Below, in pieces: positions 1-7,062 of a DNA stretch of 64,000 nucleotides. The translations under genes and the position numbers were made by a program. This DNA is from an uncultured Bacteroidota bacterium (GTDB taxonomy: Bacteria > Bacteroidota > Bacteroidia > Cytophagales > Amoebophilaceae): positions 11,875 through 75,874 of the forward strand of contig CALOEX010000004.1 in NCBI GenBank assembly GCA_942492555.1. Reading direction: 5' to 3'. The notes below the pieces were generated by a model. That model worked only from the letters and a program-made list of their open reading frames with translations. It had not been told where the DNA came from and made no database searches. Position 1 is the first letter of the stretch. Each line of letters starts with the position of its first letter.

Positions 1-734
1 GGATATTTTCTTTGTTTGTCATATACCATCCCGAGATTATGGAGGGTATCAGCATAGGAAGCATGTTCTTTGCCAACTGTTGTTGCATAAATGTCTCGGG
101 CCTTTTCGTATTGGGTGATAGCTTCCTGATATTTGCTCTGCTTATGATATATTGTCCCCATGTTTTGATGCGTTTGTGCAGTAATTTTTTTTGCTTTTTC
201 TTCTGTTAGAACTAAGACTTTTTTGTAATAGTCAAAGGCAAGGGAGTCATTTTCCAAAAGGGCAAAAATATTACCCAGACTGTGTAGTTTGGCACTTTTT
301 GTTTCAAGGTGGTCAGCTTGATGTTGCTCACAGATTATGTGGTTTTCCATGGCATTTCTATGCAAACATTTTGCTTGGGGAAGTGCATGACAGATTTGTA
401 AAGCATGCAAAAAGATGGGGACCATTATATCATGCGGATGCTTTTTTGTATACTGGCCAATGAGCTTATCAATCTCGTTCTTGTTGTTTTTATTTTTCGC
501 TGGAGGAATGTTGAGGGTTTTTTGTAGTATACCGGCTATTTGATTAAGTGCTTTTTTGGATTCTGGATTGTCATAATTTCTTTTTTGGGTACGTAAAACG
601 TCAATGTTTTGCAAAAGAACATCCGTATCGTTTTTACGTTGCCAGAAGACAATAGCACCACCTATAATGAGACTCAAGACGAGCAATATCATCGAGTATT
701 TTACATATTTTCTTTTTTTGTTGAGTTTGTTCAT
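1..734 (-). CDS. TPR-repeat protein with N-terminal membrane anchor (partial; C-terminus lies beyond window start)
   Basis: Absent from the ORF track because no stop lies in the window. Hand translation of the minus strand from the ATG (complement of 732-734) gives MNKLNKKRKYVKYSMILLVLSLIIGGAIVFWQRKN... It stays open to position 1, ending ...NMGTIYHKQSKYQEAITQYEKARDIYATTVGKEHASYADTLHNLGMVYDKQRKY, which reads as tandem TPR_12-like units. Confidence 0.8.
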   Translation of the reverse strand, partial: MNKLNKKRKYVKYSMILLVLSLIIGGAIVFWQRKNDTDVLLQNIDVLRTQKRNYDNPESKKALNQIAGILQKTLNIPPAKNKNNKNEIDKLIGQYTKKHPHDIMVPIFLHALQICHALPQAKCLHRNAMENHIICEQHQADHLETKSAKLHSLGNIFALLENDSLAFDYYKKVLVLTEEKAKKITAQTHQNMGTIYHKQSKYQEAITQYEKARDIYATTVGKEHASYADTLHNLGMVYDKQRKY

Positions 735-854
735 GATGTTTCAAATTAATTGGGCATACGCAAAGATCCAGCATTTAAACTGCATTCGGTCATGTAGGTT
801 ACCTAAATGCACTCTTTTTCGTTTAAAATTTAGATATTAAAGTTATTTTTTTTA

Positions 855-1200
855 AATGTATTTTGCTCCTATTGATTTTTGTCCATAAATAAAAGGAAAA
901 ACATAACAAATATAATGGTGTTGTTACAAAAAACACAAACTTGTCTACACCTCCTTCAAAATCCATGTGGTACAAACATGGTACACCACCGCATGAAATT
1001 AGCTATGAGATGTGTACAGAAAAAGATAAAAAGCACTTCGCAGAAGGACTGTTTAAAATGTACCAGTGTAATTATCCTTACCAAAAAGAAAAAAATAAAA
1101 AACCAATAGAATAATGACACATATAAAAAAAATAGGTATAGGCTATGCTTCATCATGCACAGTGTTGCTACGCCATTGTACACTCATCTAGATGCGCAAC
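855..1200 (+). pseudogene. Decayed paralog of the GTPase gene (1756-3855) fused to the first codons of a paralog of 3855-4544
   Basis: Nucleotide similarity to 1706-2093 and 3829-3950. The GTPase frame reads TKNTNLSTPPSKSMWYKHGTPPHEISYEMCTEKDKKHFAEGLFKMYQCNYPYQKEKNKKPIE-stop. About 1.7 kb is deleted internally and a second ~130-nt deletion shifts the N-terminus out of frame. The downstream copy MTHIKKIGIG is frameshifted and stops at about 1190. Confidence 0.75.
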
Positions 1201-1599
1201 GAAAAAAAAGAAAAAAAAAAATGATTGGAAATGTACAAGTGCCAGCCTGAAACTTTTTTACATTTACTCAAAGCAAGAGATTAGGTAGATGATGAACCTT
1301 GTCTCAAATACTCGTTCCATTACAGATTTGACATACCAAAAATGACACACGAAAAAGTGCATCATGCATAGTGAATGAAAATAAATAGTAACAGATCGGT
1401 ACAAAAGAGGCATACACTTTTGTCAACTTGTGTATTTACTTATAGGATTATCAAATTTCATTGGGCATATAAGTTAAAAAGTGGCATAGGGTTCCGGCCG
1501 CAACAGAGCAAGGTCACTTTAAATATCCCATATTTTTTACAAGGCCTTCTTTTTCCCACATTTTGCACACCTTGATTTTCGTTTCTATTTTTTTTGTAG

Positions 1600-1672
1600 A
1601 AGCGTGGTCTTTACCAAGGATTTTTTCCTTGTTTTCCCATGTTTCATTTTTTGTTGAGTTTGTTCACGACGT
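1600..1672 (-). pseudogene. Remnant of a TPR-gene 5' end (paralog of the start of 1-734)
   Basis: ttgttgagtttgttcacgacgtttcaaat at 1650-1680 matches ttgttgagtttgttcatgatgtttcaaat at 716-745. The start codon is changed to GTG and the reading GTG AAC AAA CTC AAC AAA AAA TGA stops after 7 codons. Confidence 0.4.
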
Positions 1673-1755
1673 TTCAAATAAAATTTAGTTATTAAAGCTA
1701 TTTATTTTTAAAAAAATGTATATTGCTTCTTAATTCGTTTCTTATGTTACAAGAT

Positions 1756-3855
1756 ATGCCAATAAATAAAAGAAAAAGTATAACAAATACAATATGTAAA
1801 TATGTATCATTGGGTTTATGCTTATTGTACACGCCTATACATGCATCAAAATGCACAAAAATCATACCTTTCAGGTATCAATATCTCAACACGGTACTTA
1901 GCCAGAGAAATTGTAGCAACATCCTACAAACAAAAAACACAGACTTGTCTGCATCTGCTCCAAAATCTATGTGGTACAAACATGGTACACTACCAGATGG
2001 AGTTAACTATGACAAATGTACAGAAGAAAAGAAAAAGCACTTCGCAGCACGACTGTTTAAAATGTATCAGTGTAATTATCCTTACCAAAAAGGAAAAAAT
2101 ACATTTTTTGTATTTGGTGCTGTGGGAACAGGAAAAAGTACTTTTATCAACGGTATGTTAAACTTTCCCCTTAACCGCAATAAAGATGGCGAAATTGAAG
2201 TAATAAAAAATTCATTGGAAGAAAATCCCCTTATAGGGCATGGTAGCAAACCTACTACGTATGGTAGCAAACTATTTTATAACCCGAAAATGGGTTATAT
2301 ATGTGATACTGAAGGATATGGAGGCAAAAGGAAAATAATAAATGAAGCAGAAATCTATGTAGATTGGTATTCGCCTTTTTTTTCTTTAAAAGTGAATAAG
2401 ATCAAAGGAGTCATTTTTCTTATGGATTATCATTTGATAGGCAATACCAAAAACCTAGATGGTGCACTCGAGGCTTTAGATGCTTTGTTGGTCCATTTTG
2501 GCACTGTAGACTTGGCACAATTGAAAAATGCTTTTTTGTTAGGAGTCACCAAAATCGATGATACCGACCCTGGAACTGTAGAAGCAAAACTTCTCAAACT
2601 GATACAAGCAGTATATGAAATTTGGGTAGAAGATCCTGCTGATATGGGCCACCAAAAAAAGAAATATTTTTTTTCTCTTTTTTTGGAAAAAGAAGTTGAT
2701 GATAAAAACATTGAAAATAAAAATAGTTATAAACTAAGAAAAGGAAGTATAGCCTTTATTAAACCCTTTAAAAAAAATGACATTCCCGGCGATAGTAGTT
2801 ATCAATACGATGTCAGCAACAGACTTGAACTCGAATCACTGATCAACCAGCTCAGCCCTATTGACCCAAAATATCTTTACACCCCAGAACCAGGAGAACT
2901 AAAAAAAGTAGTGGTATTCATTGCGCAAAATCTGTATACAGATTTGTGCATGTATAACACCGATGTAGAAACATTGCAACAACATAGCACCATATTAGCA
3001 GGTACATCATTAGAGGCATCATTGGCATCTTTTATTGAAAACAAACAGCAAAAAAGCGAAGTATTAGCAAAAACCATTCAAACCCTAGAAAATGATGATA
3101 CCCTTACGAATGTTTTTGCACACGAGTTTAAGCGATATAACCCCTATACAAAACAAGATGTTAAAAATGAGGCCGAAGATGTTTATAAAAGATTTGTAGG
3201 GGAAACGTTACTCAGTAAAATAGGTGCCCATATAGCATCAGCGAGTATCCATGTTGTTCGCAACTTTCAATTGTATAAGTATGGATGTATGTTAGAGTAC
3301 TTTCGATGCAACAAAACAATAATAGACCGCATTGAGCTCATAGCAGATTGTGGTGAGTTTTTCTACAACAACAAAGAAGCACTAGAACAATATTACTATA
3401 TCCTCAAAAAAAAGCCTAACCATTTGGTAGCTGTGCTAAAAAAAGACAGTCCTTACTATAGTTTCCCAGAAGAATTTGAAGTAACATATGTTTCAGGTTC
3501 TGTCAAAACATGCGATGTATCGGTTACTGTGCAAACAAAAAAACACAAGCTCAAAGCAACAGAAAAACATATTTCCTCTCTGATGTATGAATTGGAAGAA
3601 ACGAAAAAATCAATCAAAAATGCCATCTTTTCCAAAGAAAAATCAGAAAAACTAGTTGAAGAACTAACAAAAAAACTACCTAACTGGGAAAAAAAGTTCA
3701 AAGACATACAACTTGAGGACAAAATTTCCTTTTTAAAATGTTGGCAAACCCATTTTTTAGCAAATAGTGCTGAAGAAATAATCATTAAAAATGCGCTTGA
3801 TAGCTATGAACAGTGGCAAAAGCACCAAGAAAAAAATAAAAAACCAATAGAATAA
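1756..3855 (+). CDS. Large P-loop GTPase (TRAFAC class; dynamin/IRG/septin-like motifs) with long C-terminal alpha-helical region
   Basis: 710-aa ORF. G1 is GAVGTGKSTFINGML, G3 is DTEGYGG and G4 is TKIDD. The C-terminal ~380 aa are K/E-rich and coiled-coil-like. The start was chosen at MPINKRKS by analogy with the paralog remnant; alternatives are ATG 1744 and TTG 1723. Confidence 0.8.
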   Translation: MPINKRKSITNTICKYVSLGLCLLYTPIHASKCTKIIPFRYQYLNTVLSQRNCSNILQTKNTDLSASAPKSMWYKHGTLPDGVNYDKCTEEKKKHFAARLFKMYQCNYPYQKGKNTFFVFGAVGTGKSTFINGMLNFPLNRNKDGEIEVIKNSLEENPLIGHGSKPTTYGSKLFYNPKMGYICDTEGYGGKRKIINEAEIYVDWYSPFFSLKVNKIKGVIFLMDYHLIGNTKNLDGALEALDALLVHFGTVDLAQLKNAFLLGVTKIDDTDPGTVEAKLLKLIQAVYEIWVEDPADMGHQKKKYFFSLFLEKEVDDKNIENKNSYKLRKGSIAFIKPFKKNDIPGDSSYQYDVSNRLELESLINQLSPIDPKYLYTPEPGELKKVVVFIAQNLYTDLCMYNTDVETLQQHSTILAGTSLEASLASFIENKQQKSEVLAKTIQTLENDDTLTNVFAHEFKRYNPYTKQDVKNEAEDVYKRFVGETLLSKIGAHIASASIHVVRNFQLYKYGCMLEYFRCNKTIIDRIELIADCGEFFYNNKEALEQYYYILKKKPNHLVAVLKKDSPYYSFPEEFEVTYVSGSVKTCDVSVTVQTKKHKLKATEKHISSLMYELEETKKSIKNAIFSKEKSEKLVEELTKKLPNWEKKFKDIQLEDKISFLKCWQTHFLANSAEEIIIKNALDSYEQWQKHQEKNKKPIE

Positions 3856-4544
3856 TGACACATATAAAAAAAATAGGTATAGGCATACTATGCTTCATCA
3901 TGCACAGTGTTGCTACCCCATTGTACGCTAATCTATCAGATGCGCAAATAAGGGCAAGAATGCAAGAAATAGAAAGTATGGCAATTCGTTTTGAGCCTTA
4001 TGAGGCTGAAAGTCACAAGTTCGGTCTGAGTAATAAAAGTCTAAAGACATCCGGTAGGGAGATAAGGGAAAAAATAATTTTTTATAACAAAGAGCTGAAG
4101 GAGATAGGAATTTGGATGAAAGAAATAGAGGATATTCTAAATAAGCTTGGTAATACGCCTGATAAACAAACATTGCGAAAGGAGGTACTTAAGGTTAAGG
4201 ATGATCTCTTTGGCAAAGAATGGGATGTAGAAAATTTAATAGAAAATTTAAACTGGCGCAAAGAGGCACGAACATTGAAGAATAGGTGTAAAAAAGTACA
4301 TGATCAATGCATGCGCTATCTAACAAAAAAGCTTTCTGTTCCTGAAAATGATCCGAATTTTGCACTAAGATTGTTGCAAATGAAAATGAAAGTACATGGA
4401 GGATTAGGACTAGGATTAGGATTAGGACTAGGTGCTATGGGTTATATACTATTCAAAAAATATACAAAAGCATCTGAGTTGCAAAAAATCGAGGACGATC
4501 AAGTATCTGATAAAAAAAAAACTCTTCTAGAAGATTCGGAATAG
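3855..4544 (+). CDS. Signal-peptide / coiled-coil / C-terminal TM-anchored protein, translationally coupled to the GTPase
   Basis: The ATG overlaps the GTPase stop (TAATG at 3853-3857). The N-terminus MTHIKKIGIGILCFIMHSVATPLYA looks like a signal peptide. The C-terminus GGLGLGLGLGLGAMGYILFKKY looks like a TM anchor. Confidence 0.7.
   Translation: MTHIKKIGIGILCFIMHSVATPLYANLSDAQIRARMQEIESMAIRFEPYEAESHKFGLSNKSLKTSGREIREKIIFYNKELKEIGIWMKEIEDILNKLGNTPDKQTLRKEVLKVKDDLFGKEWDVENLIENLNWRKEARTLKNRCKKVHDQCMRYLTKKLSVPENDPNFALRLLQMKMKVHGGLGLGLGLGLGAMGYILFKKYTKASELQKIEDDQVSDKKKTLLEDSE
4401..4433. repeat. Hexanucleotide (GGAYTA)n repeat encoding (GL)5 within the TM anchor of 3855-4544
   Basis: ggattaggactaggattaggattaggactaggt read directly from the sequence. 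Confidence 0.9.
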
Positions 4545-4692
4545 GTGTGTCTTTGTTGATATTCTTATTACTCTTGCTGGGGTTGTTCATGATATTCAAG
4601 ATGAAAAATCGAAAAAAATAAAGTGTAATAAAAAACTTTTTACAGAATAAAGTCCACATAAGATGCCATGGTAATCTCATGCCTAGTTGAAA

Positions 4693-7062
4693 ATGATTGA
4701 AGATTTGGGTATTAGCGTTGTTTTCGGTAGTGTGATTCTTTACAGAAGTAAAGTGAGATTTACTGATGTCATCAATAATACTATTCTCATTGTATCTAGT
4801 ATTTCTGTTCCATTTCTAATGGGATTGTTAGGTTTGAAACCATCTAAAAAAGCATTTAAAACTAGTATATTGATTTTTTGGATTGTATTGTTGACGCTTT
4901 TTGTTTGTTATGTGTTTAATATTGCTCTTGCTAAAGATATTATCACATTCGTTAGAAGACATTTCTTTAAGGGAGAAGGATTAAAAAAAAGCTATTTTTA
5001 TCCATTGCGAGGTGCTTGGTTCATTGCCATTATCCTCCATGCCCTTACCTTTTTTGCCGTGCACTGGTGGGAAAACAAAGGATTTGTATGGGTGGACCAT
5101 GAAAGTGATGTATGGAAAGAATCAAAGCCCCACACAATTACAAGCTATTTCCAATGGTTTTTTCATCCTATCCGCTGGTGTATGCAAAAAGAAAACACCT
5201 ATGGCATTCGCCATTTTGCCACAGGTATTTTTACCTTAGGGTATTTTTGTCTTCCTTTTGTCTTAGAAGGCGTTGGTTCTTTTACACAGTTTGTAACGAT
5301 GTTACGTATGACACCTGTAGTACTTTCATTTGCCATTATGATCCGCGAACATTGGAAAAAAGAGTGGGAACACTACTTTAGTGGTTACTACTATCTCTTT
5401 ATGGGGTATGCCTGGTCCTTTGTCAGCGTGTTGAGTGTATTGCTTGTGCCACAAGGAAACGCTACATTGTGGCATTTGTCTATTGGTGTCCTCTTTTTAG
5501 GCATGATGGTAGACTGGCGTTCCTTTGTGGTGTTAGAACTGGTGGGTACAGTGGTTGCCTTGGTTGTACACTGGGTGATGACAGGGTTGTTATTGCCTAA
5601 TTTTGGCCATAATGGAGGGCTTCCTTTGCTGGTGAGCATGCTCTTACCTTGTATTGGTTTAACAGTATTCAATCGCTATAAAGACCAAATGCTAAAAAAT
5701 ACCCAACACCAACTCCATAAGATGATAGAAGCAAAAAATACGATGCTGATGACTTATGAATCTAGCCATGACCAAGTGTATAAAACATTGCATAAACATA
5801 GTAGTATGATGAGTGCTTTGCATGGGGTAATGTCTAGATTACAGTCTTCTCACGCAAAAGATGCTAAAATCATAGAAAGAGCTATGGATCACTTTTTTAA
5901 CATAGCACAACGCTCTAAGGAATTTTTGCGCCTTAATATCACAAGAAAGTCCATACATGAAATGTTGGATCATGCACGTACAAGTTTGTTGCGCCAAAAA
6001 ATAGAAGTGGATCGCATTGCTTTGCATATACATCCTGAGGTAGAAAGTATTGTGTGCGATGCTACACATATGGTAAATCTTTTGGTGAATGCAGTGTTGT
6101 GTATGCATGATATGGATGTTGCAGATGAAGGCAATATAGATTTGTGGATTGATCCTACAACGTTGTATTATGAGATGGAACCACCCTATGAAGGTAAGAC
6201 CATCCCAGCAATCCGCATTTTGTGTACTACAAACAAACAATATGTGCCAACTGTTGCGATAGATCCCTATACACCCTATGCAGGAGAAAACACTTGTTCC
6301 TTGTTGCATCACATGGGCATGGTAGAAAATAAACGCATTATAGGATCACACTATGGTTATATGAATATCGAGCGTACAGGTAAGCAAATTACACAAACCT
6401 ATGTAGTCCCTAGAGATTTAAAAGCAGTTCGTCCTACCATTGAAGATTTTGCCATTGAGGATCTAGAAGGTACTACCCCCCTGATAACACGAGAAGACCA
6501 AGCATTCTTAAAGGTTATTGCAGCAAAAAATATGGATGTAGATCGGGTTTCTTTGGCCTTGAGAGCATGTAAATACTGTCATGCAACCCAATATAGAAAA
6601 TCAGGAGAGCCTTATTATTTGCATCCAATGGAAGTAGCGAAGATTTTACTGGATTATACAGATGATGAAGAAGTGATCATCGCTGCGCTACTCCATGATA
6701 CAGTAGAAGATAGTCCTTATGCCTCTGGGCAAATCGCAGTAATTTTTGGGGAGAGGGTAGCAGGTATTGTCATGCGCGTATCCCATTTATACAACAAAAA
6801 AGAACGCCCTAAAATCAAAATGGAAAAAAGTGATACACTGGAGCGCCTTTTTGCTTCAGATCATAGAGAGTCATTACTAGTTAAAGTTGCTGACAGATTA
6901 CATAACATGCGTACACTCAAAGCTAAAGAAAGCGAGAAACAACATCGTATAGCAACGGAAACAATGCATTTTTTTGTGCCTCTTGCACGTCACTTAGGCT
7001 TACAAGAAATAGCGGAGGAACTTTTGGGGTTAAGTAAGCAAATTTTGGCATTGAAGCAGTAG
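4693..7062 (+). CDS. Multi-pass membrane protein fused to a degenerate histidine-kinase-like region and a C-terminal RelA/SpoT-type HD (ppGpp hydrolase-like) domain
   Basis: The N-terminal ~330 aa have many hydrophobic segments. The middle has an N-box-like CDATHMVNLLVNAVLCMHD and ...IIGSHYGYMNIERTGKQITQTYVVP. The C-terminus reads YRKSGEPYYLHPMEVAKILLD...AALLHDTVEDS...LLVKVADRLHNMRTL, the HD_4 signature. No synthetase domain is present. TTG 4687 is an alternative start. Confidence 0.85.
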   Translation: MIEDLGISVVFGSVILYRSKVRFTDVINNTILIVSSISVPFLMGLLGLKPSKKAFKTSILIFWIVLLTLFVCYVFNIALAKDIITFVRRHFFKGEGLKKSYFYPLRGAWFIAIILHALTFFAVHWWENKGFVWVDHESDVWKESKPHTITSYFQWFFHPIRWCMQKENTYGIRHFATGIFTLGYFCLPFVLEGVGSFTQFVTMLRMTPVVLSFAIMIREHWKKEWEHYFSGYYYLFMGYAWSFVSVLSVLLVPQGNATLWHLSIGVLFLGMMVDWRSFVVLELVGTVVALVVHWVMTGLLLPNFGHNGGLPLLVSMLLPCIGLTVFNRYKDQMLKNTQHQLHKMIEAKNTMLMTYESSHDQVYKTLHKHSSMMSALHGVMSRLQSSHAKDAKIIERAMDHFFNIAQRSKEFLRLNITRKSIHEMLDHARTSLLRQKIEVDRIALHIHPEVESIVCDATHMVNLLVNAVLCMHDMDVADEGNIDLWIDPTTLYYEMEPPYEGKTIPAIRILCTTNKQYVPTVAIDPYTPYAGENTCSLLHHMGMVENKRIIGSHYGYMNIERTGKQITQTYVVPRDLKAVRPTIEDFAIEDLEGTTPLITREDQAFLKVIAAKNMDVDRVSLALRACKYCHATQYRKSGEPYYLHPMEVAKILLDYTDDEEVIIAALLHDTVEDSPYASGQIAVIFGERVAGIVMRVSHLYNKKERPKIKMEKSDTLERLFASDHRESLLVKVADRLHNMRTLKAKESEKQHRIATETMHFFVPLARHLGLQEIAEELLGLSKQILALKQ

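Follow-up and report, generated by a model that had tools for sequence, protein, structure and literature searches.

A putative exported large GTPase with a septin/AIG1/Toc34-like G domain in a decaying gene array of an Amoebophilaceae symbiont

Introduction

What might a large GTPase with a predicted export signal do for a bacterial symbiont with a shrinking genome, and to which class of GTPases does it belong? These questions are raised by a gene near the start of a 64,000-nucleotide stretch of DNA from an uncultured Bacteroidota bacterium of the family Amoebophilaceae (assembly GCA_942492555.1, contig CALOEX010000004.1, here C4, positions 11875-75874), which we call the window. The genome amounts to 949.5 kb in 15 contigs with about 36% G+C. 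P0001 denotes the 699-aa GTPase and P0002 the 229-aa partner protein that is encoded directly behind it. An original prediction, made by a model from the letters of this DNA, had taken the two for a candidate membrane-remodelling or host-interaction module and had allowed, speculatively, for a symbiont version of a host membrane or immunity GTPase.

The usual view of GIMAP/AIG1, septin and Toc GTPases is that they were invented by eukaryotes, in which they organise immunity and the membranes inside the cell. That Amoebophilus has GIMAP/AIG1-like GTPase effectors has already been put forward in a computational note (PMC3417536), and in the literature we found no description of the long-form subfamily dealt with here (stalk, hydrophobic tip and C-terminal domain), of its short tail-anchored pairing, or of its split form. 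Taken together our data suggest, with a probability of about 0.5 for the explanation as a whole, that P0001 belongs, as an intact member, to a small family of exported large GTPases which evolves fast and is confined to the Amoebophilaceae, and that it is a host-directed membrane GTPase of the septin/GIMAP/Toc34 type which has survived in an eroding gene array, the function being read from sequence and a predicted model. If true, bacteria would possess a symbiont-restricted, exported family of such GTPases with a dynamin-like stalk and tip, and a tractable case for the study of how endosymbionts handle host membranes and of the direction in which GTPases were transferred between host and symbiont, a question raised in PMC3417536.

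Results and Discussion

Reading frame, motifs and predicted architecture of P0001

The P0001 frame is uninterrupted from the ATG at 1756 and gives 699 residues (700 in the original prediction), with other possible starts at an ATG at 1744, which yields the 703-aa form of the NCBI record, and at a TTG at 1723. Its structure was predicted with AlphaFold2 on a 13-sequence alignment (mean pLDDT confidence 75, pTM 0.64), the prediction from the P0001 sequence alone being unusable (pLDDT 34), and invariant columns were called in an alignment of P0001 with its full-length relatives (A1). The gene divides as follows.

1756..3855, plus strand: P0001, long-form GTPase, 699 aa, uninterrupted open reading frame from ATG 1756, full-length relatives exist
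1756..1848, plus strand: predicted N-terminal export signal, aa 1-31, with KRK n-region, hydrophobic core YVSLGLCLLY and IHA-S junction, read by eye
2083..2850, plus strand: G domain, aa about 110-365, of putative septin/AIG1/Toc34-like TRAFAC type, from A1 invariant columns, Foldseek, profile search and an alignment to a Porites domain
2896..3090, plus strand: two long antiparallel helices, aa 381-445, outgoing half of the predicted stalk (AlphaFold2 model, pLDDT mostly 71-93)
3103..3540, plus strand: predicted tip region, aa 450-595 (A1, hydropathy comparison and model)
3553..3837, plus strand: four C-terminal helices, aa 600-694, returning half of the predicted stalk, with a conserved CW motif (model pLDDT 73-94, A1 conservation)

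The G1 motif GAVGTGKST (aa 121-129, nt 2116-2142), the G3 motif DTEG (aa 184-187, nt 2305-2316) and the G4 motif TKID (aa 265-268, nt 2548-2559, closing strand 260-265) are present as the original prediction had listed them, and the invariant Thr168, directly before strand 171-176, provides G2. P0001 therefore has the elements of a TRAFAC GTPase (GxxxxGK[ST], a switch-I Thr and DxxG) in canonical order, and it keeps every family-invariant residue of A1 (Tyr74, Gly121, Gly124, Gly126, Ser128, Pro158, Thr168, Asp184 and Gly187). In the model the leader region forms a helix (6-24) followed by a disordered linker (25-68), and model and A1 agree on a conserved YxHG strand at aa 72-77 and a helix at 90-107 ahead of the G domain. 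The tip begins with strand 450-460 and a conserved RYNPY at aa 460, runs through a low-confidence stretch (463-519) and ends in a beta-rich domain (aa 514-595) which opens with a conserved GxLxxFxY motif at aa 510. The helical sequence expected behind the G domain is thus present at 381-445 and 600-694, but it is interrupted by the beta-rich segments 450-460 and 514-595 and is not purely helical. The predicted layout of G domain, helical stalk and beta-rich tip resembles the scheme of the dynamin superfamily, short of established membership in it.

An N-terminal hydrophobic leader, read by eye for the n-h-c pattern, is found throughout the family, being of the Sec type in close relatives and ending in lipoboxes (LYSC, LQSC, LESC) in distant paralogues. 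With a 19-residue hydropathy window, all eight full-length relatives have a Gly/Ala-rich segment of transmembrane grade (hydropathy 1.46-2.27) between RxNPY and the beta domain, directly preceding GYLxxFxY wherever that motif is recognisable. P0001 has no window comparable to this tip insert anywhere along its length, and aa 463-519 stand in its place.

Class of the G domain

Searches of P0001 against Pfam, NCBIfam, PADLOC, PHROGs and PDB sequences gave no match above cut-off and P-loop snippets at most, the best in Pfam being RsgA_GTPase (15.5 bits, E 0.015, against a cut-off of 30), with cobW also weak. Full-length-profile searches of PDB sequences likewise gave P-loop matches alone. The claim that P0001 is no routine GTPase of the Era, EngA or YeeP kind was in this way upheld. 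It is exceedingly improbable that P0001 is a ribosome-assembly or prophage GTPase (Era/EngA/RsgA/YeeP-like) or an anti-phage defence GTPase: the RsgA_GTPase and cobW snippets and a match of the relative P0008 to the LeoBC defence model over 54 residues speak for this, but P0001 stays below the curated cut-offs of all four family collections, has a predicted export signal, lacks KH, OB and any other RNA-binding or accessory domain, and belongs to a family absent from the other Bacteroidota searched (see below), while phage defence is unlikely in a 0.95-Mb endosymbiont genome.

Three independent lines agree on where the G domain lies. First, a profile built from 25 family G domains found septin chains as its best PDB matches beyond the P-loop (E 3e-5 to 8e-5, about 100 residues), followed at P-loop level by IRG, Toc33 and GIMAP. 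Second, in a Foldseek search with the model, pea Toc34 and Arabidopsis Toc33 came out on top (E 6e-5 to 7.5e-4, probability 1.0, target TM-score 0.44-0.48) and took ranks 1-5, 8 and 11 among the 13 matches at E<=1e-3. Third, the non-symbiont matches of P0001 are all metazoan, from the corals Porites lobata and P. harrisoni, the crab Scylla paramamosain and the ostracod Darwinula stevensoni (E 1.6e-13 to 7e-4), and these proteins have tandem G domains above the Pfam cut-offs for Septin and AIG1, models which P0001 itself does not match; aa 86-277 of P0001 align to a Porites domain from before G1 through G4 at 25% identity. On this sequence and model evidence we consider that the P0001 G domain belongs in the septin / AIG1-GIMAP / Toc34 branch of TRAFAC GTPases. 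A related signal comes from a distant paralogue in a single-contig genome of the family, which we take to be 'Candidatus Amoebophilus asiaticus' 5a2: it matches MMR_HSR1 with 36 bits and AIG1 with 25.0 bits (cut-off 27) over positions 3-206 of 212, and the family profile finds the same protein at E 6.6e-20.

Of the large-GTPase families originally named, the septin type has therefore stood up by profile, Foldseek and metazoan relatives, whereas membership in the dynamin, IRG or GBP families has not. Dynamin_N matched at E 0.37 over 22 P-loop residues, short of a dynamin-type G domain; the Pfam models IIGP and GBP gave no match to P0001, and PDB profile matches to IRG chains span just 20-45 residues. 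Weak whole-chain Foldseek matches were to chain 5owv_C of the C. jejuni dynamin pair (E 3.6e-4, probability 0.85, TM-score 0.16-0.18), to GBP5 (3.8e-4) and IRGB10 (8.8e-4), both at TM-scores of 0.15-0.26, and to EHD2, dynamin, Fzo1 and atlastin, the whole-chain TM-scores being 0.13-0.26 overall and 0.13-0.21 for 5owv_C, dynamin, Fzo1 and atlastin. Profile and structure searches, of the sort that the original prediction had called for, have led to no routine family, with Toc34/Toc33 as the nearest fold and septins nearest by profile. A library of viral structures returned dynamin- and GBP-like proteins of giant viruses and a picornavirus polyprotein (probability 0.97), the latter fitting the GIMAP-like domain reported in duck hepatitis A virus (PMC3417536). 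The notion of a symbiont version of a host membrane or immunity GTPase agrees with a remark in that paper, and with the finding that septin/AIG1-type metazoan proteins are the sole relatives found outside symbionts.

A small family restricted to the Amoebophilaceae

Exhaustive phmmer searching of 1.84 billion representative proteins with P0001 returned 17 at E<=1e-3, eight of them full-length relatives (P0004-P0008, P0011, P0013 and P0014; 595-1094 aa) from Bacteroidota metagenome-assembled genomes and metagenomes. A search for homologues by shared words found P0001 itself and, with a profile query, two weak additional matches, few words being shared. The family profile was run on 48 Amoebophilaceae genomes (18 genera) and, at 1e-8, on 400 other Bacteroidota genomes (180 genera): it matched in 22 of the former, from 13 of the 18 genera and often in several copies, and in none of the latter. 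Within the family it found nothing in the 17 genomes of one genus whose genomes are about 1 Mb.

A copy of P0001 with 99% identity occurs in an independent data set (locus L058, a Logan contig of ERR9670067). The two differ at seven positions, all non-synonymous and none synonymous, namely L79P and six in the consecutive codons 288-293 (EIWVED versus KNRRKA); this six-codon patch is likely an assembly artefact, or else a local hypervariable patch, and the ratio of non-synonymous to synonymous rates (dN/dS) is thus uninformative. A fusion gene that joins a polytopic membrane domain to a RelA/SpoT-type HD_4 domain adjoins P0001 (window 4687-7062) and likewise P0004, the best relative of P0001 (L016:1-2349), which supports orthology of these two proteins.

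As a separate observation, the relative P0005 (locus L052) has a C-terminal WD40 beta-propeller fused behind the module of GTPase, stalk and tip, and VapE-like and helix-turn-helix genes next to it suggest a mobile context.

The partner P0002 and the downstream slot

The following genes are of concern here, the last two lying on another contig (C14) of the same genome.

3855..4544, plus strand: P0002, orphan partner, 229 aa, with a signal-like N-terminus (nt 3855-3929), a charged helical middle, a transmembrane segment and an acidic tail
C14:17139-18434: short GTPase, intact, with leader and C-terminal transmembrane segment, divergent from a paralogue of the tetratricopeptide repeat (TPR) genes described below
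C14:152328-153527: short GTPase split by a stop (167 + 232 aa), between adk and uvrD

P0001 ends in TAA (3853-3855), the final A of which is also the first base of the P0002 start codon ATG, so that the TAATG overlap first noticed in the letters is confirmed at 1 nt. Hydropathy likewise bore out the signal-like N-terminus of P0002 (peak 1.69 over aa 7-25) and its (GL)5 anchor, a segment of transmembrane grade at aa 182-200 (nt 4398-4454) that includes GLGLGLGLGLG and whose (GL)5 arises from 5.5 copies of a hexanucleotide repeated in tandem at 4400-4432. We saw no terminator-like site between the two genes or directly after P0002, and a sigma-70 promoter scan is uninformative for Bacteroidota.

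The idea that GTPase and partner form a conserved module did not survive. P0002 has no homologue among 5.8 billion clustered proteins, in the 48 family genomes, or among all open reading frames of its own genome except two remnants, and since it is an orphan the gene pair is not a conserved module; a lack of co-occurrence of the two genes had been named in the original prediction as an outcome that would refute it. We also considered P0002 as a degenerate short GTPase and rejected this (BLASTP E 0.58; no similarity by phmmer against the open reading frames of the genome and the loci of the relatives). PADLOC and PHROGs yielded no relevant match, one of P0002 to ZorA being coiled-coil noise.

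In the relatives, the slot behind the long-form gene is often occupied by another GTPase. At three of five informative loci (L017, L052 and L054) a short paralogous GTPase of about 300-430 aa with its own leader lies 3-19 nt downstream, and a C-terminal transmembrane segment is present in two of the three, that is wherever the end is visible; of the other two loci, L057 has a tandem long-form paralogue upstream and L016 has no such neighbour GTPase. The short-form GTPases are mutual best matches. As adk (L017) and uvrD (L016) are also near the long-form gene in relatives, the place of the split short GTPase at C14:152328-153527 is suggested as the ancestral site of an operon of long and short forms.

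These tandem pairs bear on the possibility that P0001 is a bacterial dynamin-like protein (DLP) that acts from the cytoplasmic side on the symbiont's own membranes, held by an uncleaved N-terminal anchor and with the partner as membrane adaptor. Many bacterial DLPs are encoded as such tightly coupled GTPase pairs, the order of G domain, stalk and tip is the same, and the Foldseek match to 5owv_C (C. jejuni DLP1/2) points the same way. We nevertheless regard this as quite improbable: that match has a very low TM-score, Dynamin_N aligns to the P-loop alone, and the G domain is nearest to Toc34, septin and AIG1. Moreover the positive n-region, short hydrophobic core and AxA-like site of the leader, together with the lipoboxes of the paralogues, would place the G domain outside the cytoplasm, and the family is missing from the 400 genomes of free-living Bacteroidota.

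Another contig of this genome, C3, has a tandem pair of signal-peptide GTPases in its own right (C3:359681-361744 and C3:361748-364375; 3-nt gap, 688 + 876 aa, G domains 43% identical). It belongs to the Amoebophilus or lipoprotein-type subfamily and adjoins an AAA-ATPase-like gene of about 590 aa; a near-copy at C3:175029-176570 has its P-loop lysine replaced (GNTGTGIST; K to I).

A tandem array in reciprocal decay

P0001 and P0002 are part of the third unit of a tandem array, each unit comprising GTPase plus partner on the plus strand and, on the minus strand, a TPR gene that diverges from them. The elements other than P0001 and P0002 that we could delimit are these.

3..734, minus strand: N-terminal part of the 910-aa TPR protein, membrane-anchored, with kinesin-light-chain-like repeats, divergent to the remnant pair
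700..1199 (core about 879-1190), plus strand: GTPase+partner remnant; 926-1097 is 87% identical to 1930-2101, and 1086-1190 matches 3827-3935
1375..1682, minus strand: what remains of the third TPR copy, with the 3' end (1518-1648, 96% identity to C4:9919-10049) directly against the 5' end (1642-1682)
C4:9184-9490: second GTPase+partner remnant, matching the window remnant

In units 1 and 2 the membrane-anchored TPR genes are intact (1263 and 910 aa) and GTPase plus partner are reduced to about 300 nt. What is left begins with the upstream region and some 116 codons from the GTPase start; an A-rich microhomology marks the junction with the last ~9 GTPase codons, which are followed by the TAATG and about the first 35 codons of the partner. 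Decay in unit 3 is reciprocal, with the TPR gene a remnant and GTPase plus partner intact. Aligned as far as the partner start, the two GTPase remnants show no difference, and window 1-1489 has 98% identity to C4:8306-9797; the internal deletion is therefore older than the last duplication. Duplication as a unit, as it had been proposed, is right insofar as duplication took place, but the array has three units that include the TPR gene, and the other two copies of the pair are internally deleted. Similarly the pair does have a divergent TPR copy, but the adjacent one is a remnant and the intact TPR genes face remnant pairs.

It may then be asked whether P0001 and P0002 are a lineage-specific pair in decay that no longer has a function, the intact frames being the last to survive of an effector island that was duplicated and is being eroded while the genome shrinks. 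Internal deletions affect two of the three copies, and 110 nt of the GTPase gene remain as a fragment at the start of contig C3. P0001 has lost the hydrophobic segment that its relatives keep at the tip, P0002 is an orphan, and other paralogues in the same genome are broken, one by the replaced P-loop lysine (K to I) and another by a stop that splits it. Set against these, a stop-free frame of 2.1 kb is unexpected by chance in DNA of 66% A+T, all G motifs and family-invariant residues are retained, and a 99% identical copy is present in an independent data set; we thus think a functionless pair unlikely. In the explanation we prefer, with P0001 a functional survivor of the array, the locus would be a miniature of the duplication and decay of effector islands in shrinking genomes, and would suggest that an orphan partner is able to replace a conserved one.

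Several further observations concern this genome. Additional TPR paralogues are at C14:15356-18434 and C14:200533-204033 (87% and 81% nucleotide identity at the 5' end). One of the two diverges from the intact short GTPase listed above, and the other is next to an operon of leader-bearing coiled-coil proteins, the last of which is a tail-anchored protein of 184 aa whose transmembrane segment, GIGLGFLIVTVVGIPLVLFKQY, resembles that of P0002 in composition alone. An element of about 75 nt at window 1336-1407 recurs with 75-84% identity at no fewer than 12 other sites on C3 and C10, four of them at even distances within C10:21.6-25.9 kb, and may be a small dispersed repeat like a miniature inverted-repeat transposable element. 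About 4 kb from the array, upstream of ffh and lepA, two open reading frames of 75 and 131 aa (L005 on C4, 726-1359) look by eye like a split TnpB/OrfB-type gene with a zinc-ribbon end.

Proposed role and points against it

GTP is unavailable in the periplasm, and in combination with the Sec or lipoprotein leaders found family-wide this makes the symbiont surface or the host cytosol the most likely place for P0001. We propose that P0001 leaves the bacterial cytoplasm by way of its Sec-type leader and that, at the surface or in the host cytosol, it might bind GTP, assemble with itself and act as a scaffold for host-derived membranes or remodel them, in the manner of GIMAPs, septins and dynamin-like proteins. 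P0002, a translationally coupled coiled-coil protein with a Gly/Leu transmembrane segment, could plausibly serve as membrane anchor in trans for the tip-less P0001, and may stand in for two lost elements, the tip insert and the short tail-anchored GTPase.

A bolder version of this proposal takes the long-form proteins in general for secreted or surface machines not described before, 'paraseptin-dynamin hybrids' in which a eukaryote-type G domain, a stalk and a membrane-inserting tip would grip and reshape host membranes, and which would be split at the P0001 locus with a newly arisen P0002 anchor. We hold this version to be doubtful.

Several points weigh against an exported, host-directed GTPase of the septin/GIMAP/Toc34 type. 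Its class assignment is built on transitive and structural evidence, with low whole-chain TM-scores and no curated family match, and the G4 Asp varies across the family in A1, which makes nucleotide specificity uncertain for the relatives. No route across the outer membrane was identified. A search for Phage_sheath_1 was negative, and one with the SprA model carries no weight, as the model matched in no control genome. The P0001 C-terminus is made of helices and is no C-terminal domain of the type IX secretion system. As P0002 is an orphan, only the 1-nt overlap and complementary hydrophobicity tie it to P0001. Finally the array is decaying, so the P0001 copy could itself be on its way out.

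Comparison with known systems

Among known systems, the bacterial DLP pairs (C. jejuni DLP1/DLP2, PDB 5owv, and BDLP) are similar to P0001 in the predicted succession of a G domain and a stalk made of middle and C-terminal helices, and to its relatives in the hydrophobic tip and the tandem coupled pairs. P0001 differs from them in that it has no dynamin signature, superimposes at TM-scores of 0.16-0.18, carries a predicted export signal and is followed by a second gene that does not encode a GTPase. GIMAP2, GIMAP5 and the septins are closer in the G domain, as seen in the G1-G3 profile match to septin chains and in the Septin and AIG1 domains of the nearest outside homologues; GIMAPs are tail-anchored and form scaffolds on intracellular membranes (Schwefel et al. 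2010, as cited in PMC3417536). In P0001, however, neither a septin unique element nor the GIMAP helical extension was recognisable; it is much larger, has a predicted export signal, and would have any anchor on a separate polypeptide.

Toc34 and Toc33, the best structural match of the P0001 G domain, are GTPases anchored in a membrane at the outer face of an endosymbiont-derived compartment, a setting to which that proposed for P0001 would correspond. Identity is 13-16%, and Toc34 is a eukaryote-encoded protein of about 300 aa with its own C-terminal transmembrane segment and without stalk or tip, whereas P0001 is without translocon partners.

Another parallel is within the family. Amoebophilus encodes effectors with GIMAP/AIG1-like GTPase domains which might remodel host membranes, as put forward on computational grounds in one paragraph by Aravind and co-workers (2012; PMC3417536). 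P0001 falls into a separate long-form subfamily with YxHG, stalk, RxNPY and a C-terminal beta/helical region, a subfamily that also has the hydrophobic tip, and compared with the Amoebophilus-type proteins it has a predicted type I signal instead of a lipobox, about 34% identity over 90 residues and no Pfam match. P0001 and these effectors have in common the bacterial family, a putatively exported G domain of the AIG1/GIMAP-septin kind and a role that has been proposed for both, the scaffolding or remodelling of host membranes.

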